Shown here piece after piece: positions 15,790 through 62,779 of a stretch of DNA of 64,000 nt; within the stretch, counting starts at the first letter, position 1; every line of letters begins with the position of its first letter. The notes below the pieces were generated by a model, which saw nothing but the letters and a program-made list of their open reading frames with translations, made no database searches and was not told the DNA's origin. This stretch comes from a virus (taxonomy: Duplodnaviria; Caudoviricetes), in the IMG/VR virus record IMGVR_UViG_3300036987_000310, positions 64,001 through 128,000 of that record; one strand, written 5' to 3'. The position numbers and the translations under genes are program-made.

Positions 15790-16131
15790 ATGACAACCGG
15801 GCAATTTTGGTCCAGAGTATACACCACAGACTTTGACCTCTTTGAAGGAGATCTTGTTAACGGACCAATCAACACTGCGTTGAAAGCCGCTTTTGTCGAT
15901 GCATGTTTTGCGGTGGAAAGTGTCGGGGCGGGCTCGAGGCCCGGTTCCCTTGCGTCCGTGACTATTTCGATGACTGAAGACGGGGACTATCGCCTAGAGG
16001 CTGTTTCGGAAGGGAAGTCTTATGCGATTGTTACACAAAAATGTCACAAGTGTTTAGCAACAATCCATGGGGACTTGCACCCGTTCAACGGGTGTGACGA
16101 AGTCCTTTTGGAAGAAATTCATAACAGTTAG
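15790..16131 (+). CDS. Hypothetical protein with C-terminal CxxC/H/C and shared C-terminal tag (LEEIHNS)
   Basis: CHKC...H...CDEVLLEEIHNS; TACCCT-N5-ATG upstream. Confidence 0.6.
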   Translation: MTTGQFWSRVYTTDFDLFEGDLVNGPINTALKAAFVDACFAVESVGAGSRPGSLASVTISMTEDGDYRLEAVSEGKSYAIVTQKCHKCLATIHGDLHPFNGCDEVLLEEIHNS

Positions 16132-17030
16132 ACCGAAGCCAGTTTTTTGGCAATTCTGGCAAGCTTCGATGCGTTTTTCTTTTCCGCGGTCAAGGATTCG
16201 AACATGGCGGTGATGAGCTCGTGCGCATACGAACTCCATACGTTTGTTTCAGCAATGTTTGACGTCAGGTCATAAGACGCCAACGAAGACGCAGCTTTTT
16301 TAAACTTTTCGGAATCAAACCCGTCCGCGTCATGAGCCATTTCCATGATTTTCTGCGCGTTCTCCATCACGCTGTCTTTGGCAAACTTTAGCCCTTTTAG
16401 CGCAGACGAATCCGTGAGAAGGTCCATGCTGTATGCCTGAAAATCTGACTTCGCCTCCAAAGCATTCTTGAAAGCTCTTTTCATCTCCGGATCTAGACTG
16501 GAGTTGTTTATGTCAGCAACTTTTATATGGTCTCTTTTGGTCAGGTTTATTGGTGGCGGCAATGCCGCCACCCGGAAGGCGATCCTGACAAGTGTCGACA
16601 AACGCGGGCTGCCCAAGCTTTTGTCGATGACCCTATACATTTCTGATATTAGACCATGCATTTCGAAAACCCAACTGCTTGCCTCTTGAGGCAGTTCTGG
16701 CCCCATCATGAACTCATATGACGCTAGCTTGTTGAACGCGTCATTGTATCTCAGCCAGTCAGCATCTGGAACTTGAGCTTTCACTTGTTTCATCAAATGT
16801 TGGATCACGTCCAGAAGAGGTCCCTGACGCATTTTTAAGTTTCTGAAGACTTTTGCATCCGTGATGCTTTGACGACTTGGGATTGCTGCAAGAACGTCTT
16901 CTCTAGTTTTCAGCGCTTTCTTGAACGCTCTTTTCCACTCGTCCGGAATTTTAGACATTTCCAAGGCGCCAATGTACAAATGCGGGCCGGTGATGTCGAT
17001 TCTTGGCGGCTTAGACGACGTTCTGACCAT
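16128..17030 (-). CDS. Hypothetical protein with internal tandem duplication
   Basis: Two ~150-aa repeats (PPRIDIT...EWKRAFKKAL...KLASYE / PPPINLT...EMKRAFKNAL...SLASYD), each ending in an RIA motif. Confidence 0.7.
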   Translation of the reverse strand: MVRTSSKPPRIDITGPHLYIGALEMSKIPDEWKRAFKKALKTREDVLAAIPSRQSITDAKVFRNLKMRQGPLLDVIQHLMKQVKAQVPDADWLRYNDAFNKLASYEFMMGPELPQEASSWVFEMHGLISEMYRVIDKSLGSPRLSTLVRIAFRVAALPPPINLTKRDHIKVADINNSSLDPEMKRAFKNALEAKSDFQAYSMDLLTDSSALKGLKFAKDSVMENAQKIMEMAHDADGFDSEKFKKAASSLASYDLTSNIAETNVWSSYAHELITAMFESLTAEKKNASKLARIAKKLASV

Positions 17031-17065
17031 ATACAGGGGTCAACATTAGAAGTGTACTGTTCTTT

Positions 17066-17671
17066 GTGGATCGAACATCGGACCAGGAATGGGTTCAAGA
17101 GCGCATACGAGCTGTGTCAAGACAGTATGGGGCTTTTGACGCGTTGACTGAAGAAGGGATTGAGCTGGAGGATAAAAATTCGACTGTTCAAATTCCGTGT
17201 CCTCTTCCCGGTCACGGGCCTGACAACAGGCCGTCTGCCAGGTACTATGCCGCTGAAGGGTCCAATTCAGAACACTTCTTTTGTTTTAAGTGCAAAGTTA
17301 GATTGGACGGCATCGGCCTCATGGCAAAAATGCGCGGCATGGAGTTTATGCGCGCTTTGTCGGAGCTTGAGAGACGATTTGGCATAAAGACCCCGCGGCG
17401 TCCAGAGGCGGACATTGGCATACCGGCAGACAAAAGCGGGTTGTATGAATCTGAAGCGTGGGCAGACGTGCCACGCGTCTTGTCGATCCTGGAGAAAAAG
17501 CTCAAGAGACTTCGACACAGAGTTGCAATGCTCGACTATGTCAAATGGTGTAGAGTGTTGGATGCGATGCAGTGGGATTTGGATCGTGGAGCTGCTCCCA
17601 CCATCATGGTGCCCACTCTCATGAAGCTCAAAACATTGATGGACAACGCCGGGCAAGATGCAGATCTTTGA
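17066..17671 (+). CDS. Primase-type CHC2 zinc-binding domain protein (no TOPRIM)
   Basis: IPCPLPGHGPDNRPS...FFCFKC...DGIGLMAKMRGMEFMRALSEL..RFGI matches the DnaG ZBD pattern. GTG start. Confidence 0.7.
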   Translation: MDRTSDQEWVQERIRAVSRQYGAFDALTEEGIELEDKNSTVQIPCPLPGHGPDNRPSARYYAAEGSNSEHFFCFKCKVRLDGIGLMAKMRGMEFMRALSELERRFGIKTPRRPEADIGIPADKSGLYESEAWADVPRVLSILEKKLKRLRHRVAMLDYVKWCRVLDAMQWDLDRGAAPTIMVPTLMKLKTLMDNAGQDADL

Positions 17672-18116
17672 GTATTCTTTGAGCCTTTGCACTGGGGAAA
17701 CGATAAAAGTGTCTGAGATATCGATGGGGGCTCTCGATAAATTTGAGAAGGCGGCTTTCAAGGATCCAGCGGCTTTCAAGGCAATGTCCAGCGTGGTGTC
17801 TCTATGTACGAAGGCTCCTCGTCAAGCGATGGAAGACGCAAAAATCGGGCACACGAAGCCTCTCGAGAAGCTTTTGGGAACGCCTCCTGTGGGAACTCTC
17901 ATGAAAATAGACCGACCCGTGTGCATGAACGTATCGGACTGCGCAATGGCCGACAGTAAAAAATGCACCGCGCGTTTCTCAAAATTCCCTGAATGCTGGG
18001 ACTATTCCATGGATGTTGATGTCGATTTCACCGACAGCATGGCGGCGGCTCATGAGATCGTTAAAGAAATCGTGATGGCATGGCGCAACGGCAGGTATGT
18101 AATCATTTCCGAGTGA
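17658..18116 (+). CDS. Cys-rich hypothetical protein
   Basis: 152-aa ORF overlapping the upstream stop; C-x5-C-x7-C-x8-C cluster. Confidence 0.55.
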   Translation: MQIFEYSLSLCTGETIKVSEISMGALDKFEKAAFKDPAAFKAMSSVVSLCTKAPRQAMEDAKIGHTKPLEKLLGTPPVGTLMKIDRPVCMNVSDCAMADSKKCTARFSKFPECWDYSMDVDVDFTDSMAAAHEIVKEIVMAWRNGRYVIISE

Positions 18117-19011
18117 ACTCGTAAGCGAGCTCTTCCATCAAACGTGAAGCCCTGGCCGTGAACCTCGATGGTATTTCGACTTGAACTTCGATTATCAGAT
18201 CGCCTGTTCTCCCCGTTTGCGCGTTTTTCACTCCATGTCTTAGAACAGTCAGCTGGCCCCCCGGCTGGATTCCGGCTGGAACTGGAATTTCAATGTCTGA
18301 CCCGTTCAGTCCCACAATTGACGTCATACAGCCACGAATCGCGTCCAACACTCCAATTTTGACAGTTGTGGTCAAATCGTCACCGCATCTTTTGAAGCGC
18401 GGGTGGGGGATTCCGACAATTTTGATGAAAAGATTCCCTCTTAAACGGTTGTCTGCGCTTCCAAAAAAACTGATCGTCTGACCAGCCTCCACGCCCGCTG
18501 GGATATTTACTTTTACCTCAACCTCGCCTTTGGTTTTTCCTTTTCCTCGACAGCGAGGACAAGCTTGTGCGGGAATTGTTCCAGATCCTTTGCACGTGAG
18601 ACACTGGCGAGATGTGTTATTGAATCCCCATATTCCTTTTGTTTTTCCCGTGCCTAAACAGCTCACGCACGGCATCATCGGTGTTCCGGGAACAGCTCCA
18701 GCTCCAGAACACTTTTTGCATTTTACAGATTCTACTTCCACATTGACTTTTTTGACACACCCGAAAACTGTTTCTTCCATGGTGAGACACACCACGGCTT
18801 CCATATCTTCGTCTATGAACTCCGGCTCTTCTGAAAACCTCCGGGAGTCCTTCATGGTGTTGAATGCGTCAGTTATTTCCCTGAATTGTTCCGCATTTCC
18901 GCCTTTGTCAGGGTGAAACCTGGCGACAAGCTTCCTGTAAGCTTTTTTGATGTCGTCCAAGCCGGCATCTTCCGCAACGCCAAGCACTTCATATGGCTCT
19001 CTCGGCATCAT
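18103..19011 (-). CDS. dnaJ: DnaJ chaperone (J domain + four CxxCxGxG repeats + C-terminal domain)
   Basis: PYEVLGV...IKKAYRKL..RFHPDKGG; CKKCSGAG, CVSCLGTG, CLTCKGSG, CPRCRGKG; GDLIIEVQVEIP. Confidence 0.95.
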   Translation of the reverse strand: MMPREPYEVLGVAEDAGLDDIKKAYRKLVARFHPDKGGNAEQFREITDAFNTMKDSRRFSEEPEFIDEDMEAVVCLTMEETVFGCVKKVNVEVESVKCKKCSGAGAVPGTPMMPCVSCLGTGKTKGIWGFNNTSRQCLTCKGSGTIPAQACPRCRGKGKTKGEVEVKVNIPAGVEAGQTISFFGSADNRLRGNLFIKIVGIPHPRFKRCGDDLTTTVKIGVLDAIRGCMTSIVGLNGSDIEIPVPAGIQPGGQLTVLRHGVKNAQTGRTGDLIIEVQVEIPSRFTARASRLMEELAYEFTRK

Positions 19012-19047
19012 ATAACGCTACCCGCTGGTTTCGTTGTATGATCGAAC

Positions 19048-19266: not shown

Positions 19267-22095
19267 GTGTTTTTGCAACAAGCAGACGACAAAGTCTCAA
19301 TTAGTCGCGAGTGGTTTTCTCAATACGGGTTTCACCTTGTCGACGGCATTCCCAAGCTCAAAAAGCTTGTCGACATGTGCATCAGCAGGGGTTTGTACTC
19401 CATAGACTTGGAAACCACAGGGGTCGACAATCGGATTTACAAAGACGAGTATTTCGAAGACGGAAAAGTCACAAGACATGGCATGAGAACGATCGACAGG
19501 ATCGTCGGCGTGTGCATCTCGTTTGATGGTCAGCACGGGTACTACATTCCACTGTCGCATGAGCCGGAAGACTCTGGGAACCTTCCGTGGAATGAGGCAT
19601 GGGACGAGCTTTCTAGGCTTGTCAACAGTAAAGCTCGGGCAATTTTTCACAACAAGAAGTTTGACGCAGAGTTTTTGTTCCCGGTTGTCGGGAAAGAATA
19701 TTACAAAGTAGATGAGCATGAAGACACCATGCTTTTGGCCAGAGTGATAAACCCAATCAGAAGTTCTCCTGCTGGTCTTAAGCCGCTGACGAAGATTCAT
19801 TTCGGCATTGAAATGGTAGAACTCGATGAGCTTTTCACGCCAGAGAAAAAAGAGCAGCTGCGCAAGGAGAAGAAAAAGTACAACTTTGCTCTTCTCCATC
19901 CGAGAGAAGGTCTCGAGTATGGATGTTCAGACGGGATTTTTACATACAAACTGTGGTTTTCTATGAAAGACAAAATCCACGGCCACGACTTGATGATGTA
20001 CAATCTGGAAAAGTCGTTTTGCAACGTGGTCCAGAAGATGGAGCGGAACCGCGTTCACGTGGATGTTGAACGTGTCGAACAATTGTCGGTGGAATGCGAC
20101 ACCATGTTGAAAGAGACCGGCGACACTGTCCGGAACATAATTGAGTCCAAAACAGGCAACACCGGCAAATGGCGCACTTTGAATGTCGGGTCCCCGAAAC
20201 AGCTCTCTATGGCTTTGCTTACGGACCCTGAGGGGCTGCTGCTCAAGCCAACGAAGTTCATGCTCGGCGACGATGGCGATGCGTTGTCCGACGACAACGA
20301 TGACGATGATGATGACGACGGAAGCACTGCGCAAAAGCAGTATACGCTCAAGGACGAAGCCTTGAAGTCAATGGACGCTGCTTACGGAAAGCTTTTTAAA
20401 ATCCAACGCAACGGCGTCGTTGACAAAGAAGGAAAACCGAAGCCAGAAAGCATATTTGACATTGTGCTTGAATATAGGCACTATTTGAAGATGAAGGGGT
20501 CATATATAGACAAACTCATGGCCTCGCACGACAAATATGGCGACGTTCGGCCTGTGTTTAATCAAATGGGCACGGATACAACTCGCATGTCTTCGAAAGC
20601 TGGAAAAATAGCAGACGGGTTTTCCGGCATCAACTTCCAGGGGATTCCTCGGGATTCGGACGATGACAAGCCCGAACTGTTTAAACAGATCCGCACATGC
20701 ATCATTCCGCGTCCTGGATGGTTTCTCGTGAAACTTGACTACTCTGGCGAAGAGCTTCGTGTTGTGACCAATCTGTCTGGCGACCCTGTGTGGACAAAAT
20801 CTTTTTTGCACGAAGACGGGGACGTCCATAGCATCACTTCAAAAACATTGTTCGGCAAAAGCGACGTTTCCAAAGACGAAAGAAACCGCGGCAAACGATG
20901 CAACTTTGCATTCATCTATGGCGGAGGAGCCGGAGCCATCTCTCGTAACGTCGGGTGCTCCATTGAAGACGGTAGCAGACACATGGCGAATCTTCGCGCC
21001 GCCGTGCCTGTTTTGATGGGGTATGTTGATTATCAGAAGGAGTTTGCGCGCAAACACAAATGCATATATACGGCATTTGGGCGCCGTATCCCAATCCCGA
21101 CGATAGACTCCCCGATCAGGGCGATTAGGGCTAAGGCTGAAAGATGCGCGATCAATTACACGATTCAGGCTACTAGCGCCGACGTGTTGAAATTTGCTCT
21201 ATGTCTAGTTGATAAAAAGATCCGCGAACTCAAATGGGAAGATCGCGTTCGATACGTCATGACAGTGCACGACGAAGTCGTGTATGAAGTGAAGCCGGAG
21301 TTTTTGATGGAAGTCGTCAGGAAGCTCGATGAATGGATGACGTTCCCATGGAAGCTTCCTAAGGCTCACGGCCGGGACTGGCAAGTCCCTCTCATGACTG
21401 AGCCTGGAATTGATGTCAACTGGAAGGCCAGGTATGACTATTTCAAGATGGTCGATGGCGTTCCTCCTGTTCCAAAGGACATAGTTGACGGCGTTTTTAA
21501 AGGCAAGCTGAAAAAAGACGAGTTTTTCTCAAACGGAAAAATATACCAAAAGGTACCCTCATTTCTCGATGGTTACATATACCGTTTGGAAGAGGACGCT
21601 GACTCAAGAGTACCTCAAGAGATACTCGAGCCTGATGCTGGTGTGGCTTCTTCAGGTCAAGCGCCTGAGAAAATGCCTGATGCTGGTGTGGCTTCTTCAG
21701 ATCAAGCGCCTGAGAAAATGCCTCCCGCGCCAACAGAAACGCCAACAGAGACGCTTGCGACTGACTCCCTGCCCGATATAGGCTTGGAGGTGTCGGAGCC
21801 CACTCTGGACAAAGAAAACCCCGGGAAGACAGTTATGTTGTCGGCGACTTTGACGCGAACGGGGCCTTTGGTTAAAGCGCCTGAAAATTCACCGGGACAG
21901 GTGTTCAGGTGGATTTTTGGAGCCATTCCCTCAAAATCTGCCATGAAAAAACTCCACGCCGCGTGCGTGCTTGCTGAGGGAGATGTTCCGATCCGAATTG
22001 TCAATCAAAAAGGAGACATCCTGATCAGCGAATCCGAGAAAATTCTTGTTGATGCCGCCAAATTCAAGGTGTTGGCTGAACTGTTCGGTATTTGA
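19267..22095 (+). CDS. polA: Family A DNA polymerase with 3'-5' exonuclease
   Basis: ExoI SIDLETTG, ExoII FHNKKFD, ExoIII YGCSD; polymerase motif A KLDYSGEELR, motif B RNRGKRCNFAFIYG, motif C VHDE. Confidence 0.92.
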   Translation: MFLQQADDKVSISREWFSQYGFHLVDGIPKLKKLVDMCISRGLYSIDLETTGVDNRIYKDEYFEDGKVTRHGMRTIDRIVGVCISFDGQHGYYIPLSHEPEDSGNLPWNEAWDELSRLVNSKARAIFHNKKFDAEFLFPVVGKEYYKVDEHEDTMLLARVINPIRSSPAGLKPLTKIHFGIEMVELDELFTPEKKEQLRKEKKKYNFALLHPREGLEYGCSDGIFTYKLWFSMKDKIHGHDLMMYNLEKSFCNVVQKMERNRVHVDVERVEQLSVECDTMLKETGDTVRNIIESKTGNTGKWRTLNVGSPKQLSMALLTDPEGLLLKPTKFMLGDDGDALSDDNDDDDDDDGSTAQKQYTLKDEALKSMDAAYGKLFKIQRNGVVDKEGKPKPESIFDIVLEYRHYLKMKGSYIDKLMASHDKYGDVRPVFNQMGTDTTRMSSKAGKIADGFSGINFQGIPRDSDDDKPELFKQIRTCIIPRPGWFLVKLDYSGEELRVVTNLSGDPVWTKSFLHEDGDVHSITSKTLFGKSDVSKDERNRGKRCNFAFIYGGGAGAISRNVGCSIEDGSRHMANLRAAVPVLMGYVDYQKEFARKHKCIYTAFGRRIPIPTIDSPIRAIRAKAERCAINYTIQATSADVLKFALCLVDKKIRELKWEDRVRYVMTVHDEVVYEVKPEFLMEVVRKLDEWMTFPWKLPKAHGRDWQVPLMTEPGIDVNWKARYDYFKMVDGVPPVPKDIVDGVFKGKLKKDEFFSNGKIYQKVPSFLDGYIYRLEEDADSRVPQEILEPDAGVASSGQAPEKMPDAGVASSDQAPEKMPPAPTETPTETLATDSLPDIGLEVSEPTLDKENPGKTVMLSATLTRTGPLVKAPENSPGQVFRWIFGAIPSKSAMKKLHAACVLAEGDVPIRIVNQKGDILISESEKILVDAAKFKVLAELFGI
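21631..21720 (+). repeat. 45-bp tandem duplication within polymerase C-terminal linker
   Basis: cctgatgctggtgtggcttcttcag(g/a)tcaagcgcctgagaaaatg x2, one mismatch; encodes PDAGVASS[G/D]QAPEKM. Confidence 0.95.
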
Positions 22096-24169: not shown

Positions 24170-24841
24170 ATGAGTCTGCCCATGGGGGAACGAATAAGGG
24201 TAGTTAAGACTTCTTCCAAGCCTTCAAAAGCGCCCCCGGAAAGACTTCCGTGGCCAAGGAAAGCCTCTGACGACCTTGACGTGGAACTCGGGGTTGACGT
24301 TGAGGCCAAAATTCAGGACATCACAAAGATCGTCCACAAATACTTTCGCGTGGCAGACATCCCAATGGAAGAGCTCATGCAAGAGGTTTTTGTGACGATA
24401 GTCCACAAAAACCACACGAGATCGGCCCACGATCCGCGGAAGAGCTCATTCGGCCATTATGTCTACATGATTGCAAACAACGTTTGCATAAACCTCGTTC
24501 ATCGCAAAAAGCGTTATGATAAAGAACGGGATTCCCTCGACGCCCCAAGCGGCTCTGACGATTCCAGGAGCTTGTTGGACACGCTGGACTCTTCCTCAGT
24601 TCGTCCATGGGACGAAGACCTCCTGAGCGACCATATGAAAAATATGGAGTACATCATGCGTCGTCATGGACAGAGGGACCTGGCGAGGTACATGCGAGCG
24701 GTCCGCAGCGGCGCTAGCCCAGATGTTATTAGAGAAGCGTTGTCTTGGGGTGATAGAAAGATGTCCAATAAAACAATTCGGGATTTCAGGATTCAGATAA
24801 AGATGACGCTAGGAGCGTTGTTGGACCAATCCGCAGCCTAA
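24170..24841 (+). CDS. RNA polymerase sigma-70/ECF-like factor
   Basis: EELMQEVFVTI...HDPRKSSFGHYVYMIANNVCINLVHR resembles sigma region 2; helical C-terminus; strong SD GGAGGT. Confidence 0.7.
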   Translation: MSLPMGERIRVVKTSSKPSKAPPERLPWPRKASDDLDVELGVDVEAKIQDITKIVHKYFRVADIPMEELMQEVFVTIVHKNHTRSAHDPRKSSFGHYVYMIANNVCINLVHRKKRYDKERDSLDAPSGSDDSRSLLDTLDSSSVRPWDEDLLSDHMKNMEYIMRRHGQRDLARYMRAVRSGASPDVIREALSWGDRKMSNKTIRDFRIQIKMTLGALLDQSAA

Positions 24842-27476: not shown

Positions 27477-28238
27477 GTGCCAATCCTAACAGCCATCCAG
27501 TATAAGCCCCGGTTTGCCACTTGTTCGGCAGACGTGTCTGACAACTTCAGGAGATGCGCCGACCTGGTGAATCAAGCCGCAGCGCTCGGGTCAGAAGTTG
27601 TTGTTTTTCCGGAGCTGACTTTCACAGGATATAGCTTTCTGTCGTTTGACGACGCCATACTTGTTGCAGAGCGTCGTGACGGGCCTACGTTCCAACGCAT
27701 GTCCAACATGGCGAAGATCTTGAAATGCTATGTTGTGTGGGGTTTTGTCGAAGCAGACGGGGACTTTTTATATAACTCAGCTTCCATGGCTGGTCCGAAC
27801 GGGGAGTTGCTTTTGACAAACAGGAAACTGAATCTTTGGGGAAATGATTTCCTGTGGGCCACGCCAGCAGACGACCTTCCCGGGATAGTTCAAACCGAGC
27901 TCGGGTGGCTGTCTGTTGTGGTGTGTAGAGATATTATCGATAAAGTTCCCGCAAAATCTGGAAAACCTGGAGTTTTTGTCAACAGGAAGGTTGACCTTGT
28001 AGCCGCACCCATGAACTGGGGAGGCGGGGGGTTTCCTGCAACTGATTGGATGGAGTTTTCGCAGAACAACTCGTGCGCCTTAATAGTTGCCAATAGATGG
28101 GGCGTTGAAGAAAACAGGTCTTTTCGACACGATTTCGGCCAGGGTGGGTCATTGATTGTCGGGAAAGATCTGAAGTCGCACATAGGTGGTTTGAAGTTCA
28201 ACAGCAACAGCGTGGTCGCCGCTATGGTCGACCTTTGA
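27477..28238 (+). CDS. Carbon-nitrogen hydrolase (nitrilase superfamily)
   Basis: Glu-Lys-Cys triad: VVFPELTFTGY, NRKLNL, VVVCRD; YNSA motif. Confidence 0.85.
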   Translation: MPILTAIQYKPRFATCSADVSDNFRRCADLVNQAAALGSEVVVFPELTFTGYSFLSFDDAILVAERRDGPTFQRMSNMAKILKCYVVWGFVEADGDFLYNSASMAGPNGELLLTNRKLNLWGNDFLWATPADDLPGIVQTELGWLSVVVCRDIIDKVPAKSGKPGVFVNRKVDLVAAPMNWGGGGFPATDWMEFSQNNSCALIVANRWGVEENRSFRHDFGQGGSLIVGKDLKSHIGGLKFNSNSVVAAMVDL

Positions 28239-49701: not shown

Positions 49702-49889
49702 TGGCTCATGACTTCCATGACTGGATGACGACTAATGCACACCCAACAAACGCGTTGCCCATCAATATTTCCGCTCTGGACTCTTCCAGAGTGCATATGA
49801 CTTTTCGGAAGCCACCACATGCGAATCTTCTTACACCTAGGGCATCTTTTGTGCCTCGGACGCTTTCTGTTCTTCGCTCGCTTCTTCAT
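49698..49889 (-). CDS. Basic Zn-finger protein with C-terminal tag (VMEVMSQ)
   Basis: CPRC...CWVC. Confidence 0.55.
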   Translation of the reverse strand: MKKRAKNRKRPRHKRCPRCKKIRMWWLPKSHMHSGRVQSGNIDGQRVCWVCISRHPVMEVMSQ

Positions 49890-50234: not shown

Positions 50235-50540
50235 TCATGACGACTGCACCTCGTCGACTACAATTAGATTCATGGCGTCTTTAACCGACACCTCGACAAG
50301 AGCTTTCCAGATTGTTGCATTAATCACCACGCGTGTTTTATGCTCTTCGCACCGAAACACGGTTAGCGTGCCTCCGGGGCGAAGAAAAGCACGCGTTGCT
50401 GGTTTTCCGCACTTAACGCCAGCGCGCGATCCGCTTTTTTTGTGCGGAAAATGGCCACAAACCGGCAATTTCACCGCCCTATGACTTTTACGACCTGTCA
50501 CTCGACTTCCTCGAATGCTCCTAAAGCGTTCCTTTTCCAT
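50235..50540 (-). CDS. Cys/His protein with C-terminal tag (VDEVQSS)
   Basis: VCGH...KCGKPA...RCEEH. Confidence 0.5.
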   Translation of the reverse strand: MEKERFRSIRGSRVTGRKSHRAVKLPVCGHFPHKKSGSRAGVKCGKPATRAFLRPGGTLTVFRCEEHKTRVVINATIWKALVEVSVKDAMNLIVVDEVQSS

Positions 50541-52422: not shown

Positions 52423-52902
52423 CTATGAGTTCATTATGTCCGGGACAAGCTTTTCTCGTTCAATTAACCCCTCGCATCTGTTTGCTGGATCGGGAAACAG
52501 CGGAGTACACCCGAGCCCTGTGTACTCATGGAAGCAAACCATGACTTTCGGCAATGCGGAGTACGTAACTTTCAAACCGTTTCCACCGTTTGCTTTTAAG
52601 TTTGGATGAGTGCACTGAGTCCCTTCGCGATTCATGCAGTTTCCGCACAAAAGCATGAATTTCCCGGGGCCGCCGCGCCCCCACGGGATTTCTCTGTACA
52701 ATCTCTCATGATCGTTTATGACTTTCTCACATGCCTTGCTTCTGCAGGTCACGAGAATCTTTTCGGGGTCGATGCTGTCATCTTCTCTGCATTCCCACCA
52801 CATAGTGAACTCGCAAATGTCATCTTTTTCAAATCCGCACAGCTGACATCGTTTAAAAACGCTTAGCGGAAGCGCGCCATCGGACAGACTTTCCATCACC
52901 AC
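52423..52902 (-). CDS. Cys-rich protein with C-terminal tag (VPDIMNS)
   Basis: CQLCG, CRSKAC, LCGNC, CTH. Confidence 0.6.
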   Translation of the reverse strand: MVMESLSDGALPLSVFKRCQLCGFEKDDICEFTMWWECREDDSIDPEKILVTCRSKACEKVINDHERLYREIPWGRGGPGKFMLLCGNCMNREGTQCTHPNLKANGGNGLKVTYSALPKVMVCFHEYTGLGCTPLFPDPANRCEGLIEREKLVPDIMNS

Positions 52903-54334: not shown

Positions 54335-54667
54335 TCACAACCTGTGACCGAATGTTTTTTCCGTCATTAAATTTGTTACCAGCGCAGCATTGCAGTCTTC
54401 GGGCGTTCCAGAGTTTTCAAGGTCCCCGCGTTCCGGGGTTTTGCATACGTGGTTGCCGGTGCGACTGCAGATGGTCCACGTTTCGCTACCGCATACTGAG
54501 CACTGCCACAACTTCGTGTCGTTATGCAAAACTTTGACGAAACGCCAATCGTGTTTTGTTTTGATTTCTTCGTAAGAAATGGGAACGACGACCTCTTGAG
54601 CCTCTCCGTCCTGTTCAAAGTTCAGGAGAGCATCATATCTGTTCAAGAGGTCGTCGTGTTTGGTCAT
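54335..54667 (-). CDS. Zn-ribbon protein
   Basis: WQCSVCG...ICSRTGNHVC...DCNAALVTNLMTE; ATGA overlap with the vWA gene stop. Confidence 0.55.
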   Translation of the reverse strand: MTKHDDLLNRYDALLNFEQDGEAQEVVVPISYEEIKTKHDWRFVKVLHNDTKLWQCSVCGSETWTICSRTGNHVCKTPERGDLENSGTPEDCNAALVTNLMTEKTFGHRL

Positions 54668-56550
54668 GCGGCCCAAGTGGGTTTGCAGAGAAGATCTTGC
54701 TTCAATATGGTATCAACGAGCGTGACGCGCGGAACCGCGACAGCCCGAGCCGTCGCGCCGACTGGAGTTGCTGCGACGAGCGCACGAATCGTACGAGGAA
54801 TCGCGTACGGATCTGCGAATGTTGCTTCGTCAATCATGAAGCATGGAATCCCGAGTCGGGCCGCGGTGTCGCGAACTGCGGACCCATACCCTCCTAAGTT
54901 GACGACTCCGTACATCATGCCTCCTCCAACCTTCACAAAGCCGAAAGCCATGGGGCGAAGTTCGGACGTGTTGACGTCATTCTCAAACGACGACGCTTGT
55001 TCATCTCCAACAAAGATGAACAAGCTGTCTTCGTCGTCGCCAGGCTTGTGGGCCTTCAAGGCGCGGATCCCGGCTCCATAGTCGGTTCCGCCTCCAGCGC
55101 GAATGCCCTTGAAGGCGTTCTCCACTCCAGCTGCAGAGGGGTGGCGGATCTGAAGCTCGCGCCCCTGCGTGTTGAAAATGGACACGTGCACTTTGTCCGG
55201 CGGGAACCCCTGAAGGAATTTTGCGACGTGAGATTTGGCAGCCTCAATCGCATTTTCCATCGACCCAGAGACGTCCACCATGAAGTACACGCGCATGCCC
55301 TTCATAGTTTCTTCGACCGCCTTTTGCAGAGCCCCGTCGGCTGCTTCTTGCAGCTTTTCCTGAGTCTCCTTAGACTTGACGCGGTTGGCGATGTTGGCCG
55401 CCCGCATGTCTTCAGCGTTTTTGACAGCTTTGTTCCACCTGTCTTTGACGTCTTGGACCTCTAGCAGCCCAAGCTCCTCGAGAGTCGGCGTGTAGATGAT
55501 CAAGTCCTTGTCGGACAGAGACTTGGCTTCAATTGCTGCGGCCATGACGGCGCGCGTGACCCCGACCTCTTTCGGAAGAAGTCCGACGACCCGCTTGAAA
55601 TTCGGCTTTTCACGAACGATCTTTTCGCAGATCTGTTCTTCCGTCATTCCTTCCCAAGTTTCGGCTGCAGCCATTTCCTGACCGATTGCGAGCTGGCGCC
55701 TGCCGTCTTTTGCCTGCGCCTGCTTCCAGCGCAGAATCTCAAAGAATTTCGTCGTTTCAGGCTTATATCCGACGCAACGCGAAAGCTCCATGACAGTGGA
55801 TCGGAAGCCTGCTTTCACGAGGCCTTCGAGAAGCTTCGTGTTCTGCTCTCGATGTCTCAGCCACTTCTCCACGGCCTTGTCCCATCGGCCGTAAAATGGC
55901 CGACGAGCTGACCTCCCAAATCCAAGCTCGCGATTGACAGCCGCCACCCCTGGAAGGGAAAGCAGATCGTGGACGCGCAAGAGAAGCTTCGGATTGAAGT
56001 CCTTTCCGTCCTTGCGAGAAAGAAGAAGCATGGCCTCGCCAACGTCACGATAGTCTTCATCGTAAAATGCGACTTTTCCGCCGTCGACAACCGAGTCCCC
56101 CTTGCGGGACTGGCACAGCATGAACGCAGCCAGAACAACTTTCAAGTCGCGATGCTCCTGACCGAAAGCATACGACGCCCACCGAGCTGCGAATTCGTTG
56201 TCGAGCTTCCAGACTTCGGCGACTTGCGTGTACATCCAAACTGCCACTTCCGGAAACAGGCCGGCCGGCCTATACTCCCCAACGATGTTCGCGCCTTCTT
56301 TCACTTTCCCATCATCTTGAAGAACGCCTAGACGAGTGCGCACAGACTTCTTTCCCTGCTTGGAAAGCTTGTACACAATTTTTTGCTTCGGATCGCCTTC
56401 TTCTTTGTGGGTGACAGGTTCCCATCTGACGCCGACGTTGAAACGGTTATCGGCGACTACGATGCCAGGGCGGTTGTGGACCGCGTGGTCCGTGTAGCCG
56501 AGAAGCGTTTGAATAATTCTCTCTGCCGGTCCTAGATTTTCTTTGTCCAT
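54664..56550 (-). CDS. Ro60/TROVE-like protein: helical N-terminal region + C-terminal vWA domain
   Basis: MIDAS VDVSGSM...GGTDY...VGDE; about 400-aa basic helical N-terminal region as in the TROVE+vWA architecture; lies between rtcB and the Y-like RNA array. The vWA call is firm; TROVE is inferred. Confidence 0.65.
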   Translation of the reverse strand: MDKENLGPAERIIQTLLGYTDHAVHNRPGIVVADNRFNVGVRWEPVTHKEEGDPKQKIVYKLSKQGKKSVRTRLGVLQDDGKVKEGANIVGEYRPAGLFPEVAVWMYTQVAEVWKLDNEFAARWASYAFGQEHRDLKVVLAAFMLCQSRKGDSVVDGGKVAFYDEDYRDVGEAMLLLSRKDGKDFNPKLLLRVHDLLSLPGVAAVNRELGFGRSARRPFYGRWDKAVEKWLRHREQNTKLLEGLVKAGFRSTVMELSRCVGYKPETTKFFEILRWKQAQAKDGRRQLAIGQEMAAAETWEGMTEEQICEKIVREKPNFKRVVGLLPKEVGVTRAVMAAAIEAKSLSDKDLIIYTPTLEELGLLEVQDVKDRWNKAVKNAEDMRAANIANRVKSKETQEKLQEAADGALQKAVEETMKGMRVYFMVDVSGSMENAIEAAKSHVAKFLQGFPPDKVHVSIFNTQGRELQIRHPSAAGVENAFKGIRAGGGTDYGAGIRALKAHKPGDDEDSLFIFVGDEQASSFENDVNTSELRPMAFGFVKVGGGMMYGVVNLGGYGSAVRDTAARLGIPCFMIDEATFADPYAIPRTIRALVAATPVGATARAVAVPRVTLVDTILKQDLLCKPTWAA

Positions 56551-56649: not shown

Positions 56650-56973
56650 ATGGCCCCAGATCAACTCGCCGCTGCCCTGCGCGCTGTTGCCGCAAAGATT
56701 GACAACTCCAAAGAGCCTTCAAAGGAGCTCGTGGCGGATGCCATAAAGCATTTGATCGCAGGGGTGGAAAAAGTGGACATCGCCCCGCCTTTTGTCACGC
56801 CCGCAGAAGATGCCGGGGTTGTCACGAATCCCGAAACGAGGGTTAACAATCCCGTAAACCCACCATCTCCAATTAAGCGGCAAGAGCCTTGCGACCATTA
56901 TCGCTTGGTCAGGGAAGGTGGTCGGTGTCCTAACTGTGGAGAATACTTCAAACCGAATTTCGGCAATTTCTGA
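56650..56973 (+). CDS. Hypothetical protein, N-terminal paralog of 62844-63269, C-terminal Zn ribbon
   Basis: MAPDQLAAALRAVAAKIDNSKEPSKELVADAI; CPNCG. Confidence 0.65.
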   Translation: MAPDQLAAALRAVAAKIDNSKEPSKELVADAIKHLIAGVEKVDIAPPFVTPAEDAGVVTNPETRVNNPVNPPSPIKRQEPCDHYRLVREGGRCPNCGEYFKPNFGNF

Positions 56974-57077: not shown

Positions 57078-57422
57078 TCACATCTCCATCATTTCTTCAA
57101 ACTTGAGAATGTTGTCAAGCTCCGCTTCGAAAAAGCAGAATTTGAACGCTATCGCATGAAGCCCGGAGGAACTGGGGAAGTTGCATCTTTCCACAAGCCT
57201 CTTTCTCAAGTGGTCGGGGACATCTTTCCCAACATTGATGAATGACATCATCCCGACTATTTGAAATGACAGCCATGCTTTATCTCCCACAGCTGGGGAC
57301 CCGTCGCTGTTTGTTTTTTCGGGGGGATCGTGGGGCCACCTGAATGAGTGCCCGCACCGGGAACATGCCCACGTGTCTCCTTCAAGCTCCCAATTGTGAT
57401 CTGATTCTTTCAACACATCCAC
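57078..57422 (-). CDS. Zn-ribbon protein with C-terminal tag (FEEMMEM)
   Basis: GTG start after TATAAT-N4; WACSRCG. Confidence 0.55.
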   Translation of the reverse strand: MDVLKESDHNWELEGDTWACSRCGHSFRWPHDPPEKTNSDGSPAVGDKAWLSFQIVGMMSFINVGKDVPDHLRKRLVERCNFPSSSGLHAIAFKFCFFEAELDNILKFEEMMEM

Positions 57423-57427: not shown

Positions 57428-57832
57428 TTATACCTGAAACCAAACATATGGCACGGACCCAGGAAGCGCGAACCACGCGTCCCGCGGAAGGCAGTATCCG
57501 GCAAGGCCCAAGCCGATTGCCAAGCACATGAAGGCTTCCACCGACCTGTGCTCGCCCCATTGGCTTCCATTTCTGTCGTAGCACAGTTCCAGGAACGAGG
57601 CCCCATCGCCTTTGCCCCTCATGAACTTGTCTGAAACAATTTCCATCATCAACGCGACGACCGGTTTTCTCAGGGCCTCAAGACGCCCGGGATGCAACGC
57701 GAATGTTCTCACGACGCCTTGCACGATAACGGCGTCTTTCGGAGGCTTCCCGTCAACAACTTCGCTTTCCCGGAACAGGACCCCGTGCTCGTCGTTCACA
57801 TACATGTCTTCCACTCTTTCAGAAAGCTCCAT
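57428..57832 (-). CDS. Hypothetical protein
   Basis: 134 aa; FLELCYDRNGSQWGEH; SD GGAGGA. Confidence 0.6.
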   Translation of the reverse strand: MELSERVEDMYVNDEHGVLFRESEVVDGKPPKDAVIVQGVVRTFALHPGRLEALRKPVVALMMEIVSDKFMRGKGDGASFLELCYDRNGSQWGEHRSVEAFMCLAIGLGLAGYCLPRDAWFALPGSVPYVWFQV

Positions 57833-58291
57833 TCAGTCCTCCATCGTCACAACGACCAGTCGCATGTTGACCAACGCTGTGATTTGATCTATCGTCATTC
57901 CTGAATCGAATGCTTCGTCAATGGATTTTGTCAACGTTGACAAAATTTGTTGCTGAGTTTTCGGAGCAAATGCGAAAACTGGGTTGTTATCGATTCCCAT
58001 AATCCACGAGTGTTGTGACAACACATCTTCTCGTATCCTTGCATCCGTCAAAGGCTCAATTTTCCACCAAGCTCCGTGGAGCTTTACGGATTCGCCATGG
58101 GGGCGCATCCCAGTGTGATGCGACGTCATGGGCGCCGCAATCCATAGGACCGTCGGCCCTTCGTTCATCACCGTCGCATTCCAGTCACGGAACTCCACTG
58201 GATCGAGGTCAGCAACTTCGTAGTTTTCTTCCCACCATTTTGGAATGGATTGGGATGGCAAACTGTGCAAGAAGCGTTGGGAGCTGCTCAT
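57833..58291 (-). CDS. Hypothetical protein
   Basis: 152 aa, ATGA-coupled; ends VVVTMED. Confidence 0.55.
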   Translation of the reverse strand: MSSSQRFLHSLPSQSIPKWWEENYEVADLDPVEFRDWNATVMNEGPTVLWIAAPMTSHHTGMRPHGESVKLHGAWWKIEPLTDARIREDVLSQHSWIMGIDNNPVFAFAPKTQQQILSTLTKSIDEAFDSGMTIDQITALVNMRLVVVTMED

Positions 58292-59079
58292 TGCACGACC
58301 TCTTTTAGTTTTGAATACAGAACCTTTGGGTCAGTGCGGGATAGACCAGACATTTGCCCATCGTTCAGTTCAATCACGATCCATTTGCCAGACTGTGTTC
58401 TGGCAACATCCACAACGTAAAACCTGGCAGAGTCCCCAATCCTAGTGATGACTTCTTGAAGAAACGAGGCCGGAACCGAGCTCGGGTCAGGACAACCGCC
58501 CGGGATGTCGTCTTCATAATTTGACCAGTAAAACCCGCCACACAAAACTTGTTTGTCGCAAACGAAAAACCTATATTCTTCAGCCACAGGCATTCCTTGA
58601 AGCCCATCCATCAATTTAACAAGCGGAACATACTCGCGTGCATAAATGTGTTGATCGCATATAAGGCCGTCGTCCATGAGGCGGCATGCAACTTCAACAG
58701 CGTCCCGCTTGCTTTGCGCAAACATGTGGGTTTTCCATTGGAACTTTTTCGAATTCGTGGCACCTTTGACAACAAACGGACCCGCGTTGTCAGGAATGTC
58801 CTGAAGCCGCCTCCAAGTGCGGGGCGTCAAATCGCCCAAATCGTCCACCCAGTTCCCCAAGTCAGCAATATATGAATGTTGTCGAAAGCTGTTGATGAGC
58901 TTGGATCCGAAGTCATCCAGCTCTTGCTCCAGCTCGCGGTAAAATGGCAAAACGCTGTACCTTCCAATCACCAACGATTCTCGGGGAATGCGAGACCGCA
59001 GTTCCACAAGTTTGAAGTGGGGCGCAACTGCGGCCGTTTCTTCAGGGCACATGCCCCGAGCAAGCACTATCGATTGCAT
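58288..59079 (-). CDS. ATP-grasp protein (R2K-clade-like)
   Basis: LVIGRYSVLPFY, FVVKGATNSKK, YAREYV, EEYRFFV, FYVVDVA...WIVIELNDGQMSG (E-x-N). Start re-assigned to ATG 59079. Confidence 0.8.
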   Translation of the reverse strand: MQSIVLARGMCPEETAAVAPHFKLVELRSRIPRESLVIGRYSVLPFYRELEQELDDFGSKLINSFRQHSYIADLGNWVDDLGDLTPRTWRRLQDIPDNAGPFVVKGATNSKKFQWKTHMFAQSKRDAVEVACRLMDDGLICDQHIYAREYVPLVKLMDGLQGMPVAEEYRFFVCDKQVLCGGFYWSNYEDDIPGGCPDPSSVPASFLQEVITRIGDSARFYVVDVARTQSGKWIVIELNDGQMSGLSRTDPKVLYSKLKEVVQ

Positions 59080-59153
59080 AACAACAATTACAGCAAAGAC
59101 AGCTACCACCGATATGCGTCGCTGGTCGGCGAGGGCAACTCTAATCAGCCCCT

Positions 59154-59405
59154 TCAAATCATTCCAGGCTCGTGCCACCGGTCGTTTTCGTTGTCCCAAT
59201 GCCGGACGTCATATAAATTGATGTCGAACATCAGGTATGCTACCTGCCACGACAGATCGATGCCCGCATGGTCGCCCTTGGTGGAAGCGCGAAACCGGAG
59301 GTATAGGTCCGGTGCGTGCTCCGGCCACCAGCTGAGTTGTGCTGACAAGGATTTGTGCCTCGTCAACTCCAAGTCGAGACACAGGTCGCGATTCTTGCGC
59401 AGCAT
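59154..59405 (-). CDS. Hypothetical protein
   Basis: 83 aa; DHAGIDL...NLYDVRHWD. Confidence 0.55.
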   Translation of the reverse strand: MLRKNRDLCLDLELTRHKSLSAQLSWWPEHAPDLYLRFRASTKGDHAGIDLSWQVAYLMFDINLYDVRHWDNENDRWHEPGMI

Positions 59406-59406: not shown

Positions 59407-60816
59407 TCAGTCGGATCCCTTTATGCTGGCCAAGGGGTAGAGCCGCCGCTCGACGCGCGCCACTCCGGCCTTTTGCAACACCGCGAGCACTGCGTCGAGG
59501 CTCTTGTACACGTGGGCGCATTCGTCCAACGGCACGTGCTTGGTGTTGCCGACAATGCCTTCCACTGCCACGGAGCCAAACTGGCGCTTGACTTGGCGCA
59601 TCTCGTCGTCTATGCGCAGTTGCTTGTGCTCGAACTTGCGCTTGGCCGCGCCCCGAGCCAAAATGCGCCCCGATCCGTGGTTGACCGAGCATGCCCAGGC
59701 ATGCGCGCCGTCCAGAGGCGTCAGCACCGCTGCGCCTTCGAACATGCTGCCGGGAACGATGATTGGGTGCCCCACAGCCGCCCATCTCAGCTGGTTCGCG
59801 ATGTCCGGATGGCCCGCCGGCATGGCGCGCGTCGCGCCCTTCCGGTGCACTAGACCGCGCTTTGTCGTCCCGTCTGGCAGCACCAGCGTCTCCTCCTGGA
59901 TTAGATTGTGCGAGATTTCGTAGTAGACTTCGGCATCAACTCCAAACTGCTCCTGGAACGCGCGGCGCACGGAGGCGGCCATGGCATGGCGGTTGGCAAT
60001 CGCGTAATTGGCTGCCGAGTTGTGATGCGCCCAGTATTGCTTGCCCGTTGGCTCTTCAATGGATAGCCACGCTTCGCCGCGGCGTTTTGACGACCAGCCT
60101 CGGACCCTGGCTGCTTCGTAGAAGAAGTGCTCTGCGGTCTGGTATCCGTAGCCGCGCGAGCCTGAGTGGATCATGACCCACAGCGAGCCGTCGGCCTCGT
60201 CGCCTTGCAGTTCGATGAAGTGGTTTCCGCCGCCGAGCGATCCGAGCTGAGCCGCGGCCTTGCTCCAGGCACGCTCGATCAGCTTGAAGTTGGTGCCGTC
60301 CGCCACGGGGAGCTTCACTCGCTCGCACGAGTTCGGCAGCACGTCCAAGGGCTCTCCGCCGTTCTGCATGATTTCGAGCAGGGTTTCCTCGCTGAATTCG
60401 GGCATGAGCTTCGGCCTGTTCATTCCGATCCCGACGGCGACGCGCTTCTCGACTTCCGAAATCCAGCGCTCGCGCGGGTACCGATTCTTGAAGTGCCCGG
60501 CAGTCAGACCATCCACCCGCATCAGCAGCATACCGCAGCTGATGTCGTACCCGCTTGCTGCCATCACGAGCGTGCCGTCGGTGACGAGCACGCATCCAAC
60601 AGGAACCGAGTATCCTGAGTGCGAGTCGGGCATGAGGTATGCGCCGGTCACGCCTTCGTACGAGGCGGCGTACATCAGCTGATTCCACACCTCCTCTTCG
60701 GAGGCCGCATACAGCTCGTCCGACAAGAACGCGTGGCCGTCCACCTTCATTGTCTTGGTTTTCGCCAAAACGTAATGACCGTCGTCGAGACGTTGTGCTG
60801 CATATTTGAGCGACAT
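59407..60816 (-). CDS. rtcB: RNA ligase RtcB
   Basis: MPDSHSGY..PVG, GYDISCGM, GSLGGGNHFIE, HSGSRGYG, HNLI, HRKGAT, PGSM, HGSGR, LDECAHVYK. Confidence 0.96.
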   Translation of the reverse strand: MSLKYAAQRLDDGHYVLAKTKTMKVDGHAFLSDELYAASEEEVWNQLMYAASYEGVTGAYLMPDSHSGYSVPVGCVLVTDGTLVMAASGYDISCGMLLMRVDGLTAGHFKNRYPRERWISEVEKRVAVGIGMNRPKLMPEFSEETLLEIMQNGGEPLDVLPNSCERVKLPVADGTNFKLIERAWSKAAAQLGSLGGGNHFIELQGDEADGSLWVMIHSGSRGYGYQTAEHFFYEAARVRGWSSKRRGEAWLSIEEPTGKQYWAHHNSAANYAIANRHAMAASVRRAFQEQFGVDAEVYYEISHNLIQEETLVLPDGTTKRGLVHRKGATRAMPAGHPDIANQLRWAAVGHPIIVPGSMFEGAAVLTPLDGAHAWACSVNHGSGRILARGAAKRKFEHKQLRIDDEMRQVKRQFGSVAVEGIVGNTKHVPLDECAHVYKSLDAVLAVLQKAGVARVERRLYPLASIKGSD

Positions 60817-60918
60817 GTTATTTTCTTTCAAGAGCTCGTTCAAGTAGCTGTCGGATCAGAGTTGGTCAATTACACCTCGTAAAAGTATGAAACTCACACG
60901 AACGATGTAAACTTCGGC

Positions 60919-61416: not shown

Positions 61417-61417
61417 A

Positions 61418-61759: not shown

Positions 61760-61762
61760 CCT

Positions 61763-61972
61763 TCAGCTGTTCCTTTTCGGAAACCCGAGCGCGTTTTTCT
61801 TGCCACGTTTGGAAGTTAAAGCAGCCTTTTGCTGCTTGATGCTTCCAACACTTGCACAAGAGACACCCGGCCCGATTACCCTTCGGTCGCCTGCGCTTAT
61901 GGTTTGCCATTGTGACCTCCTTGCCGCCACCAGCGGCGCGGCTATGGTCACAATTTCGTTCGCTCTACACAT
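61763..61972 (-). CDS. Small hypothetical protein
   Basis: 69-aa ORF overlapping the upstream stop. Confidence 0.35.
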   Translation of the reverse strand: MCRANEIVTIAAPLVAARRSQWQTISAGDRRVIGPGVSCASVGSIKQQKAALTSKRGKKNALGFPKRNS

Positions 61973-62330
61973 CGTGTATTTCTTGAATTATGCAAGATTT
62001 TGTTTCACAAAAATCTTCGATGTGCTCCCCACATCGAAGACAGAATGAATGGATTGCGCCGACGCGATCTTCTATGCGCATAATGCCAATGCGCTCCGGG
62101 ACTGGGTTTTTCTTGGTGTTGACGTACACCGGCAGGCCGAAAAGCGTTCCCATCATTCCTATGCGCAAGAGCTCCCCGTGTGTTTCGATATCCAGGTGTT
62201 TTCTGCCAAACTTTCTGATGTGCGCATAGTCTGCGATGTGCATTCTAATTATCGCCGGGAAGACTTTTTTGTCTTCGAGCTTTTCCAGAACGTCGCAAAC
62301 AAACTCCAACGACAAAACATACTCAGACAT
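61965..62330 (-). CDS. Protein resembling a capsid P-domain fragment + Zn ribbon + C-terminal tag (IQEIHDV)
   Basis: IRMHIADYAHIRK...ELLRIGMMGTLFGLPVYV; CLRCG...C...C. Start moved to ATG 62330 because 62335-62417 is a tRNA. Confidence 0.55.
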   Translation of the reverse strand: MSEYVLSLEFVCDVLEKLEDKKVFPAIIRMHIADYAHIRKFGRKHLDIETHGELLRIGMMGTLFGLPVYVNTKKNPVPERIGIMRIEDRVGAIHSFCLRCGEHIEDFCETKSCIIQEIHDV

Positions 62331-62334
62331 GTAG

Positions 62335-62417
62335 CAGAGGGATGAGGACTCGAACCCCAGCGGTTTCCCGCCCATCTGTTTTCAAGACAGCGCCGGTCCC
62401 TGACCGGTTACCCCTCT
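62335..62417 (-). tRNA. tRNA-Ser(TGA)
   Basis: AGAGGGG/TCCCTCT-G; D hairpin CCGGTC-AGG-GACCGG; CTGT-CT-TGA-AA-ACAG; variable arm GCGG(GAAA)CCGC; no encoded CCA. Confidence 0.85.
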
Positions 62418-62420
62418 AAG

Positions 62421-62558
62421 TCAAGACTCCATCAAGTCCTTCACCATTTGGATTCGCATCCGGATGCGTGATAATTTCTTGTTTGCACCGCATGCAAATC
62501 CAATCGGTCCACTGCCCGCCATATTTGGACATGGACGCGACAAGAATTCATGGACCAT
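62421..62558 (-). CDS. 45-aa protein with C-terminal tag (VKDLMES)
   Basis: MVHEFLSRPCPNMAGSGPIGFACG...QMVKDLMES*. Confidence 0.45.
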   Translation of the reverse strand: MVHEFLSRPCPNMAGSGPIGFACGANKKLSRIRMRIQMVKDLMES

Positions 62559-62566
62559 GTTTGCAA

Positions 62567-62779
62567 TCAGGCGTCCATGACTTCTTCGACAGAGGCCGGA
62601 ACCTGGAGCGGACTCCCGTGCTTGTTGAACCACCTGGACCTCTTTTTCATACAACTCCCACACAGTACTACGCGACGGCCATCCGGAACCAGCGGACCCC
62701 AATGAACTAGCGTAGCGTGTTCTTCGCCACAGTTGTCTTCACACTTCCCGAAGTCTCTTCCGCCAATTGTGTCTGCCAT
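62567..62779 (-). CDS. Small Cys/His protein with C-terminal tag (VEEVMDA)
   Basis: CEDNCG..H...LCGSC. Confidence 0.55.
   Translation of the reverse strand: MADTIGGRDFGKCEDNCGEEHATLVHWGPLVPDGRRVVLCGSCMKKRSRWFNKHGSPLQVPASVEEVMDA

Follow-up and report, generated by a model that had tools for sequence, protein, structure and literature searches.

A short C-terminal tag shared by some ninety small proteins of a 377-kb phage, a probable docking peptide

Why should many small and otherwise unrelated proteins of a single phage end in the same few residues? The question is raised by a 64,000-nucleotide (nt) stretch of viral DNA, called the window here, which corresponds to bases 64001-128000 of one 376,674-bp virus record (IMG/VR IMGVR_UViG_3300036987_000310) that has direct terminal repeats and is rated 100% complete. 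A preliminary description of the window listed eight open reading frames (ORFs) between positions 15790 and 62779 that share a C-terminal heptapeptide, referred to below as the tag, and took it for a docking, packaging or degradation signal. Deposited phages hold only distant relatives of the family A DNA polymerase encoded here (window 19267-22095), and the 295-amino-acid (aa) major capsid protein (MCP; genome 328566-329453) matches phage G gp27 (PDB 6WKK, E = 2e-58). The tag turns out to end about 93 of roughly 508 genes in this 377-kb phage, about one in five, and it probably serves in docking; a search of the literature found no description of it.

The case for the tag begins with its abundance. 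The strict motif, [VILF]x[ED][VILM][MHQ]xx-stop, was scored where six-frame ORFs of 30 aa or more terminate, with the expectation taken from the internal frequency of the motif. A lack of enrichment had been named beforehand as a refuting outcome; the enrichment found is large: 43 ORF ends carry the strict motif genome-wide, against 2.7 expected. Because the motif was derived from the window alone, the remaining 312 kb provide an independent hold-out, and these contain 34 further ORF ends. A profile covering the last ten residues, iterated to convergence at a threshold that allows 0.5 false hits, picks out 93 ORFs over the whole genome, where about 0.7 would be expected.

The consensus of the 93 members, [DE]-E-[LW..]-h-V-x-[EKD]-[VI]-[MHQ]-[EDSN]-[SAET]-stop, describes a tag of about 7-11 residues built around an invariant core: V at -7, V or I at -4, and M, H or Q at -3, the last of these exactly two residues ahead of the free C-terminus. 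The same preferences emerge from 485 tag-blind genes, called by a home-made Markov caller that had no knowledge of the tag, when every residue at each of the last 12 positions is subjected to a binomial test. M was observed at -3 in 66 genes (11 expected, p = 4e-30), V at -4 in 91 (38 expected, p = 8e-15), V at -7 in 86 (38 expected, p = 1e-12), E at -10 in 74 (30 expected, p = 2e-12) and C at -12 in 22 (7 expected); H and Q at -3, I at -4 and -7, E at -5 and -2, and S at -1 are enriched as well. K takes the place of E at -5 in 19/93 members, and Gly is rare at -1 and at -2 (4/93 each). Pro and Gly are depleted throughout positions -12 to -1, at 0-5% as against 10-14% in untagged proteins.

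The position of the tag is as strict as its composition. It ends at the stop codon in 93/93 members, and at a profile score of at least 14 there are 76 ORF ends compared with about seven internal sites among the roughly 102,000 internal positions of the called genes. An internal match that had been suggested earlier, VTNLMTE in the ORF at 54335, is absent from the internal profile hits, the place of that ORF in the called gene set being unchecked. The blind calls include 70 of the 93 tagged ORFs, and 21 of the 23 that were missed sit in otherwise empty intergenic gaps, not inside other genes. One 308-aa gene (genome 242813-243739, +) has an internal tag, EFIAKEVMET, followed by a Pro-rich linker and then a terminal tag; from this layout it looks like two tagged genes fused through stop-codon loss.

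Is the signal written in protein or in nucleic acid? When the 93 members are aligned at their stop codons, the information lies in codon positions 1 and 2; the third position comes close to random, codon -4 having A9 C36 G27 T21 there. The E, D, V, I, M, H and Q residues of the tag are spelt by many different codons, and the commonest Glu codon within it, at -5 too, is GAA, not GAG. Beyond the stop codon the information content is no more than 0.1 bit at every position from +3 to +47. The surroundings of tagged genes are those of untagged ones: the next gene is convergent in 20% versus 17%, the next start overlaps or lies within 15 nt in 31% versus 36%, the downstream gap exceeds 40 nt in 40% versus 35%, and stop-codon usage is alike. 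Random third positions, the lack of downstream conservation and this ordinary context together mean that the tag is neither a ribosome-binding site nor a DNA repeat, in agreement with the earlier argument that it is not an overlapping Shine-Dalgarno sequence. A dispersed DNA repeat supplying gene ends was considered and rejected, there being no nucleotide identity past the stop codon. Selection acts at the level of the protein, and the common ending is a genuine short linear motif.

Nine of the 73 genes in the range 15790-62779 are firm carriers. The eight strict endings given in the preliminary description are all present as quoted and all belong to real members, but a ninth, ending ISDVQDS (46733-46981), had been missed. 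Two of the looser matches that had been put forward, at 48031 and 39140, are probably weak members, because the score band of 6-10 in which they fall holds 28 ORFs where about 3 are expected; two others, at 42787 (score 0.8) and 57833 (0.7), are indistinguishable from chance. The carriers are as follows, with window positions and profile scores.

15790-16131 (+): tagged gene, 113 aa, a CxxC...H...C knuckle and then CDEVLLEEIHNS-stop; score 19.2; next gene convergent.
46733-46981 (-): tagged gene, 82 aa, coiled-coil-like, ending ILLDISDVQDS-stop; score 15.4; a tag-blind gene call.
49698-49889 (-): tagged gene, 63 aa, CxxC...CxxC zinc ribbon, ending HPVMEVMSQ-stop; score 12.0.
50235-50540 (-): tagged gene, up to 101 aa (start uncertain), ending LIVVDEVQSS-stop; score 15.6; 66-nt gap to the next gene.
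52423-52896 (-): tagged gene, 157 aa, Cys-rich, ending EKLVPDIMNS-stop; score 16.6, coding score 19.7; 35-nt gap to the next gene.
57078-57422 (-): tagged gene, 114 aa, ending ILKFEEMMEM-stop; score 11.5; next called gene convergent.
61965-62330 (-): tagged gene, 121 aa, with an MCP segment and a CxxC...C...C knuckle, ending SCIIQEIHDV-stop; score 12.9.
62421-62558 (-): tagged microprotein, 45 aa, ending IQMVKDLMES-stop; score 16.9; in a gap between called genes.
62567-62779 (-): tagged gene, 70 aa, zinc ribbon and Pro-rich linker, ending PASVEEVMDA-stop; score 18.2; in a gap between called genes.
48031-48246 (-): probable weak member, 71 aa, Cys-rich, ending RIVESVHGE-stop; score 7.0.
39140-39940 (-): probable weak member, 266 aa, ending ATLDGVHEQ-stop; score 6.7, coding score 37.

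None of the nine firm carriers reaches the Pfam or PHROG cut-off. The genes at 49698-49889 and 52423-52896 match no family in either collection, 46733-46981 gives only weak, sub-threshold HSBP1/coiled-coil hits in Pfam, and 62567-62779 only a sub-threshold treble-clef hit. Several starts were revised. That of 15790-16131 is set by a 66%-identical homologue beginning MTTGQFW; 57078-57422 was shortened because a 168-aa form overlaps the gene at 57428-57832; 61965-62330 was shortened because a longer form runs over a tRNA-Ser (62334-62417); and 62421-62558, which has the same tRNA 3 nt downstream, was corrected from a 93-aa TTG form that overlaps 62567-62779. The stop of 49698-49889, a gene lying in a gap between blind-called genes, overlaps the start of the next gene (ATGA). 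The three contexts cited earlier are as described: 16131 is followed by a convergent gene, 62421 by a tRNA and 52423 by a 35-nt gap.

Across the genome the tag is portable, ending proteins that have little else in common. No BLASTP relative within the genome (E < 1e-4, last 12 residues removed) was found for 79/93 carriers, which bears out the earlier view that they are mostly unrelated, and some small families contain both tagged and untagged members. The only recurrent Pfam family among 91 carriers is the ankyrin repeat, with four members. Carriers have twice the Cys content of untagged proteins, and CxxC is present in 35% of them as against 17%, so their portrayal as Cys/His-rich holds in part only. 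With few exceptions they are accessory proteins of small size and rapid evolution (zinc-ribbon microproteins, proteins with ankyrin repeats, MCP pieces and orphans), and nearly all are encoded in the accessory region between 100 and 270 kb, avoiding the structural and replication modules.

The MCP pieces deserve separate mention. The gene at 61965-62330 copies MCP residues 166-222 (40% identity over 57 aa, E = 4e-12), and MCP segments are also found in the tagged genes at genome 133270-133500, 198219-198419 and 313716-313937 and in the untagged gene at 190784-191302. The residues reused across these small proteins are 17-44, 115-163 and 166-246, and in most of the proteins the segment is joined to a zinc knuckle and the tag. 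MCP is the only core gene observed to be fragmented and reused as pieces.

How widely is the tag distributed among phages? Three IMG/VR contigs of 139, 242 and 274 kb (655 kb in total), whose polymerases are 61-70% identical to the one in the window, are fragments (33-64% complete) of tag-bearing relatives. The profile built on the present phage finds 11, 21 and 9 tagged ends in them, respectively, against 0.25-0.5 expected, and re-iterated profiles with thresholds set for 0.5 expected hits find 14, 25 and 16 members. Each lineage has its own dialect. The GC-rich (66%) relative G5 (IMGVR_UViG_3300037851_001277) uses V-D-x-V-H-D-[L/F/Y], for example at 140470, 164137 and 220235, a dialect in which position -3 is always His and the chain ends in a hydrophobic residue, and the other tag-bearing relatives use [VI]-M-x-[DE]. 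Orthologues of 15790-16131 end in CEAVLVQEVMDS and CEVVLIEEVMLT, compared with CDEVLLEEIHNS here, so that the tag is kept with an H/M exchange at -3. No tag signal was detected at any position in LR745208.1, Tunturiibacter phage Tunturi_5 or Bacillus phage G, which are complete or near-complete genomes with the same capsid family. On this set of genomes the tag is a trait of one clade. Back-translated DNA patterns for searching public collections were dropped because they are too degenerate, yielding 0-3 hits per known positive genome at usable specificity.

Several other features of the genome came to light along the way. A promoter-like element, TCGGAAG-N(~13)-GCGCGTATCGG, recurs between 205 and 255 kb (for example, at genome 246750-246790 and 248510-248550); it lies directly before the ribosome-binding site of tagged and untagged genes alike, and the analysis gave no assignment to early or late expression. 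The accessory region also holds an eight-member family of untagged paralogues, including window 56650-56973 (+) and 62844-63269 (+), often on the strand opposite to their neighbours; the family matches no Pfam family and is kept in all three tag-bearing relatives. The window further encodes a sigma-70 region 2-like protein and a carbon-nitrogen hydrolase (24182-24841 and 27477-28238, both +), a protein with an HAD_SAK_2 RNA-repair domain (15305-15718), and two proteins with sub-cut-off Pfam hits, to a Rad50-like ATPase with zinc hook (32003-33310, -) and a matrixin-like HExxH peptidase (14796-15308, +). An R2K-clade ATP-grasp protein, a predicted peptide or amino-acid ligase (58288-59199, -), adjoins RtcB (59407-60843, -).

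What, then, is the tag for? The preliminary interpretation, that of a docking, packaging or degradation signal, is partly supported. The features of the motif argue that the tag is probably a docking peptide, read end-on from the free C-terminus by one common partner. Such a tag would tether many different binding modules to the same machine, each protein consisting of a variable module and a constant C-terminal tether, and the shared machine could serve in chaperoning, in proteolysis or processing, or in loading into a particle. That the tag binds something, and that it has a single reader, is what we infer from these features. Several observations weigh on the other side. No partner emerged from the candidates examined, and the tagged ORFs are known from sequence alone. 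Structure models have mean predicted local distance difference test (pLDDT) scores of 45 for 15790-16131 (from an alignment of 3) and 36 for 61965-62330 (from a single sequence), too low for the shape of the tag to be read from them, and the tail does not exceed untagged proteins in helical hydrophobic moment. Moreover, a Cys-containing knuckle stands directly before the tag in a third of carriers, with C at -12 enriched, and for these carriers the tag could be the closing part of a single diverged zinc domain instead of a peptide standing on its own.

In the search for a reader, phyletic profiling leaves 48 genes shared by two or more of the tag-bearing relatives and missing from every tag-less one, too many for a reader to be named, and the ten genes conserved in all three relatives are mostly tail-like or of unknown function. 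The phage genome has no match to TPR_12, PDZ_2, ClpP or Hsp70, a search that did not cover other TPR models or host readers. The suggested link to ubiquitin-like protein and E2 genes found no evidence, and the tag ends in [ED][SA], not Gly-Gly. One candidate reader, from a family that acts on peptides, is a full-length class A DnaJ (window 18103-19008, -) with a J domain, a CXXCXGXG zinc domain and C-terminal domains. It adjoins the polymerase, an arrangement that is syntenic in every tag-bearing relative, and is encoded by a phage without its own Hsp70; a complex prediction pairing it (4-sequence alignment) with the 70-aa protein of 62567-62779 gave a score of 0.00, which speaks neither for binding nor against it.

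A bolder version of the docking proposal is that the tag marks an undescribed, phage-wide targeting system, in which one reader belonging to the clade or to the host takes some 90 interchangeable bait modules by their free C-termini; we offer this tentatively, as a possibility rather than an expectation. The baits would include ankyrin repeats, zinc fingers and copies of MCP segments, and the reader would deliver the targets they capture to a single machine, there to be destroyed, remodelled or packaged.

Among the alternatives, the idea of a processing site or degron fares best, unlikely as it is: a protease would recognise the tail and either clip off its final residues or degrade the carrier at a particular time. 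Of all positions in the tag, [VI] at -4 and [MHQ] at -3 are the most informative; they are adjacent and fixed two residues from the end, and [VI]-[MHQ]-xx could be seen as P2-P1 plus a dipeptide leaving group. Candidate enzymes are a papain-like Peptidase_C1, a DUF2201 metallopeptidase-VWA protein with its MoxR ATPase, and a host AAA+ protease; the phage encodes no ClpP. The Peptidase_C1 (genome 155568-156374, -; best PDB match xylellain, 3OIS) retains its catalytic Gln, Cys, His and Asn, and it occurs in two tag-bearing relatives and in no tag-less genome, although some 48 genes share that phyletic pattern. As a member of a peptide-acting family it is a candidate for acting on the tag. It has a one-base overlap with a gene for a Cys-rich protein with a lipoprotein-like signal (genome 155164-155568, -), and both are conserved in one tag-bearing relative.

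The MoxR ATPase (genome 234511-235617) and the metallopeptidase-VWA protein (229187-230635) were confirmed and lie within the most tag-dense region of the genome. Against them, MoxR, DUF2201-VWA, a 628-aa VWA protein and the R2K ATP-grasp have no tblastn hit, even at E < 1, in the tag-bearing relatives (655 kb); none of five relatives tested has DUF2201_N; and a MoxR homologue is present in tag-less phage G. As the relatives are fragments, these absences weaken the pair as a putative tag reader but are not proof. One relative holds an unrelated AAA_5 gene. The 628-aa VWA protein (window 54664-56550) was rejected as a reader on its absence from the relatives, and the R2K protein, considered as a C-terminal ligase acting on the tail, is likewise absent from them and has no positive evidence in its favour. 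A survey of jumbo phages (PMC7824862) mentions phage-encoded DnaJ, a pairing of MoxR with a metallopeptidase-VWA protein, R2K ligases and, in phage G, an expanded set of zinc ribbons, and reports no shared tail; for the pair it proposes a role in virion assembly, not in tag reading.

Loading into the particle is distinctly unlikely. The tail would bind the procapsid interior (capsid, scaffold or portal) and the carriers would be packed and injected with the DNA, for which small anti-host proteins would be plausible cargo by analogy with the T4 internal proteins. The MCP is a minimal HK97-type protein, 295 aa long, belonging to the phage G family; its identity to the proteins of the tag-bearing relatives is 91-94%, well beyond that of other genes, and four tagged proteins contain pieces of it. 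That said, a capsid protein with 76% identity occurs in tag-less LR745208.1, the tag is missing from the ends of all candidates for portal, protease, scaffold, decoration and capsid proteins, the tagged genes lie in the accessory region (100-270 kb) distant from the structural modules, and ninety different cargo species would be unprecedented.

Common descent, with the carriers forming one very diverged superfamily and the tail its best-conserved last structural element in an intramolecular role, has still less chance of being right. BLAST singletons could be diverged relatives, C at -12 (22 versus 7 expected) and CxxC (35% versus 17%) are in excess, and many tails come directly after C-x2-C...H...C. 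Yet the same tail is found on ankyrin-repeat, MCP-fragment, coiled-coil-like and Cys-free proteins, the tail of 62567-62779 comes after a Pro-rich linker, and there are families with tagged and untagged members. The internal relic and terminal tag of the 308-aa gene are as expected from a fusion of tagged genes, and a purely structural helix need not stop exactly two residues past [MHQ]. Last, and with almost no chance of being correct, comes a nucleic-acid or translation artefact (a ribosome-binding site serving the following gene, a repeat in DNA or RNA, or an effect of the nascent peptide on termination): GAG-GTN can spell part of a Shine-Dalgarno sequence, AGGAG/GAGGT sites are in use at -13 to -9 in this genome, and in roughly one tagged gene out of three the following start overlaps or lies within 15 nt, but GAA over GAG, the random third positions, the absence of conservation past the stop, and the stop-codon usage and downstream context shared with untagged genes largely refute it.

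Genes of huge phages are mostly orphans that offer no handle for study, and a shared tail on a fifth of the proteome supplies one. It sets apart a functional class of about 90 proteins per genome, rescues tiny genes missed by gene callers (23 here), and leads one to expect a single partner, which could be captured with one peptide. The dialects of the different lineages (M, H or Q at -3; S/E or a hydrophobic residue at -1) allow each proposed reader to be tested by covariation. Should variable modules indeed be tethered to one machine by the tail, phages would have a new means of arranging host takeover or counter-defence, and engineers a portable tag ready for use.

Known systems offer several points of comparison. 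Adaptor tethers are seen in SspB, with its ClpX-binding (XB) peptide at the C-terminus, and in those ankyrin-repeat proteins of poxviruses that end in a PRANC/F-box; their plan, a variable target module with a short constant C-terminal element that docks onto a shared machine, is close to the one proposed here; like the poxvirus set, the tag carriers include ankyrin-repeat proteins. Should the targeting idea be true, the Ank/F-box adaptors of poxviruses, or the SOCS-box family, would have their counterpart in a virus of prokaryotes. There is no sequence likeness, however, and the number of carriers in one phage is about 90. Signals read at the very end of the chain are a second parallel: peroxisomal PTS1 (-SKL), read by the TPR domain of Pex5, and the EEVD-COOH of Hsp70 and Hsp90, read by TPR clamps and class B J-proteins. 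These too stand at the exact C-terminus of many unrelated proteins, and EEVD shares with the tag an acidic and an aliphatic residue near the end (E-E-V). The key residues of the tag are at -3, -4 and -7, not at -1, the phage has no TPR_12, and the system is a bacterial and viral one.

Peptides that load proteins into shells include the T4 capsid-targeting sequence, the encapsulin cargo peptide, the C-terminal tail of the HK97 protease and the encapsulation peptides of microcompartments. Like the tag they are short, portable and attached to unrelated proteins, and a minimal HK97-type capsid fold is present here. The T4 signal differs in being N-terminal and removed by the prohead protease at L/I-x-E; the C-terminal tag has a V-x-E triplet at -7 to -5, but K replaces the E in 19/93. 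Encapsulin cargo peptides match the tag in their C-terminal position, which all 93 of 93 members share. They are Gly/Ser-rich, with a core of the L-x-I-G-S-L type, and their genes adjoin the shell gene, whereas the tag consensus is V-x-[EKD]-[VI]-[MHQ]-[ED]-[SA] with Gly and Pro depleted, and the capsid gene lies at 328.6 kb, with most carriers at 100-270 kb.

Degrons and conjugation signals differ as well. The ssrA/ClpX degron ends in non-polar residues (L-A-A-COOH), where the tag mostly has [EDSN][SAET] and the phage lacks ClpP; ubiquitin-like systems use a C-terminal Gly-Gly, and here Gly is found in 4/93 members at each of -1 and -2. MoxR AAA+/VWA machines, including CbbQ-CbbO on the Rubisco tail, can act on C-terminal tails and acidic residues, and a MoxR-like ATPase with a DUF2201 metallopeptidase-VWA protein does lie inside the tag-dense region, but the pair was not found in the three tag-bearing relatives (33-64% complete) and MoxR occurs in tag-less phage G. 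The tag thus fails defining sequence or context features of each known system with which it was compared. In architecture it is nearer to adaptor tethers and end-read tags than to capsid and compartment loading peptides.

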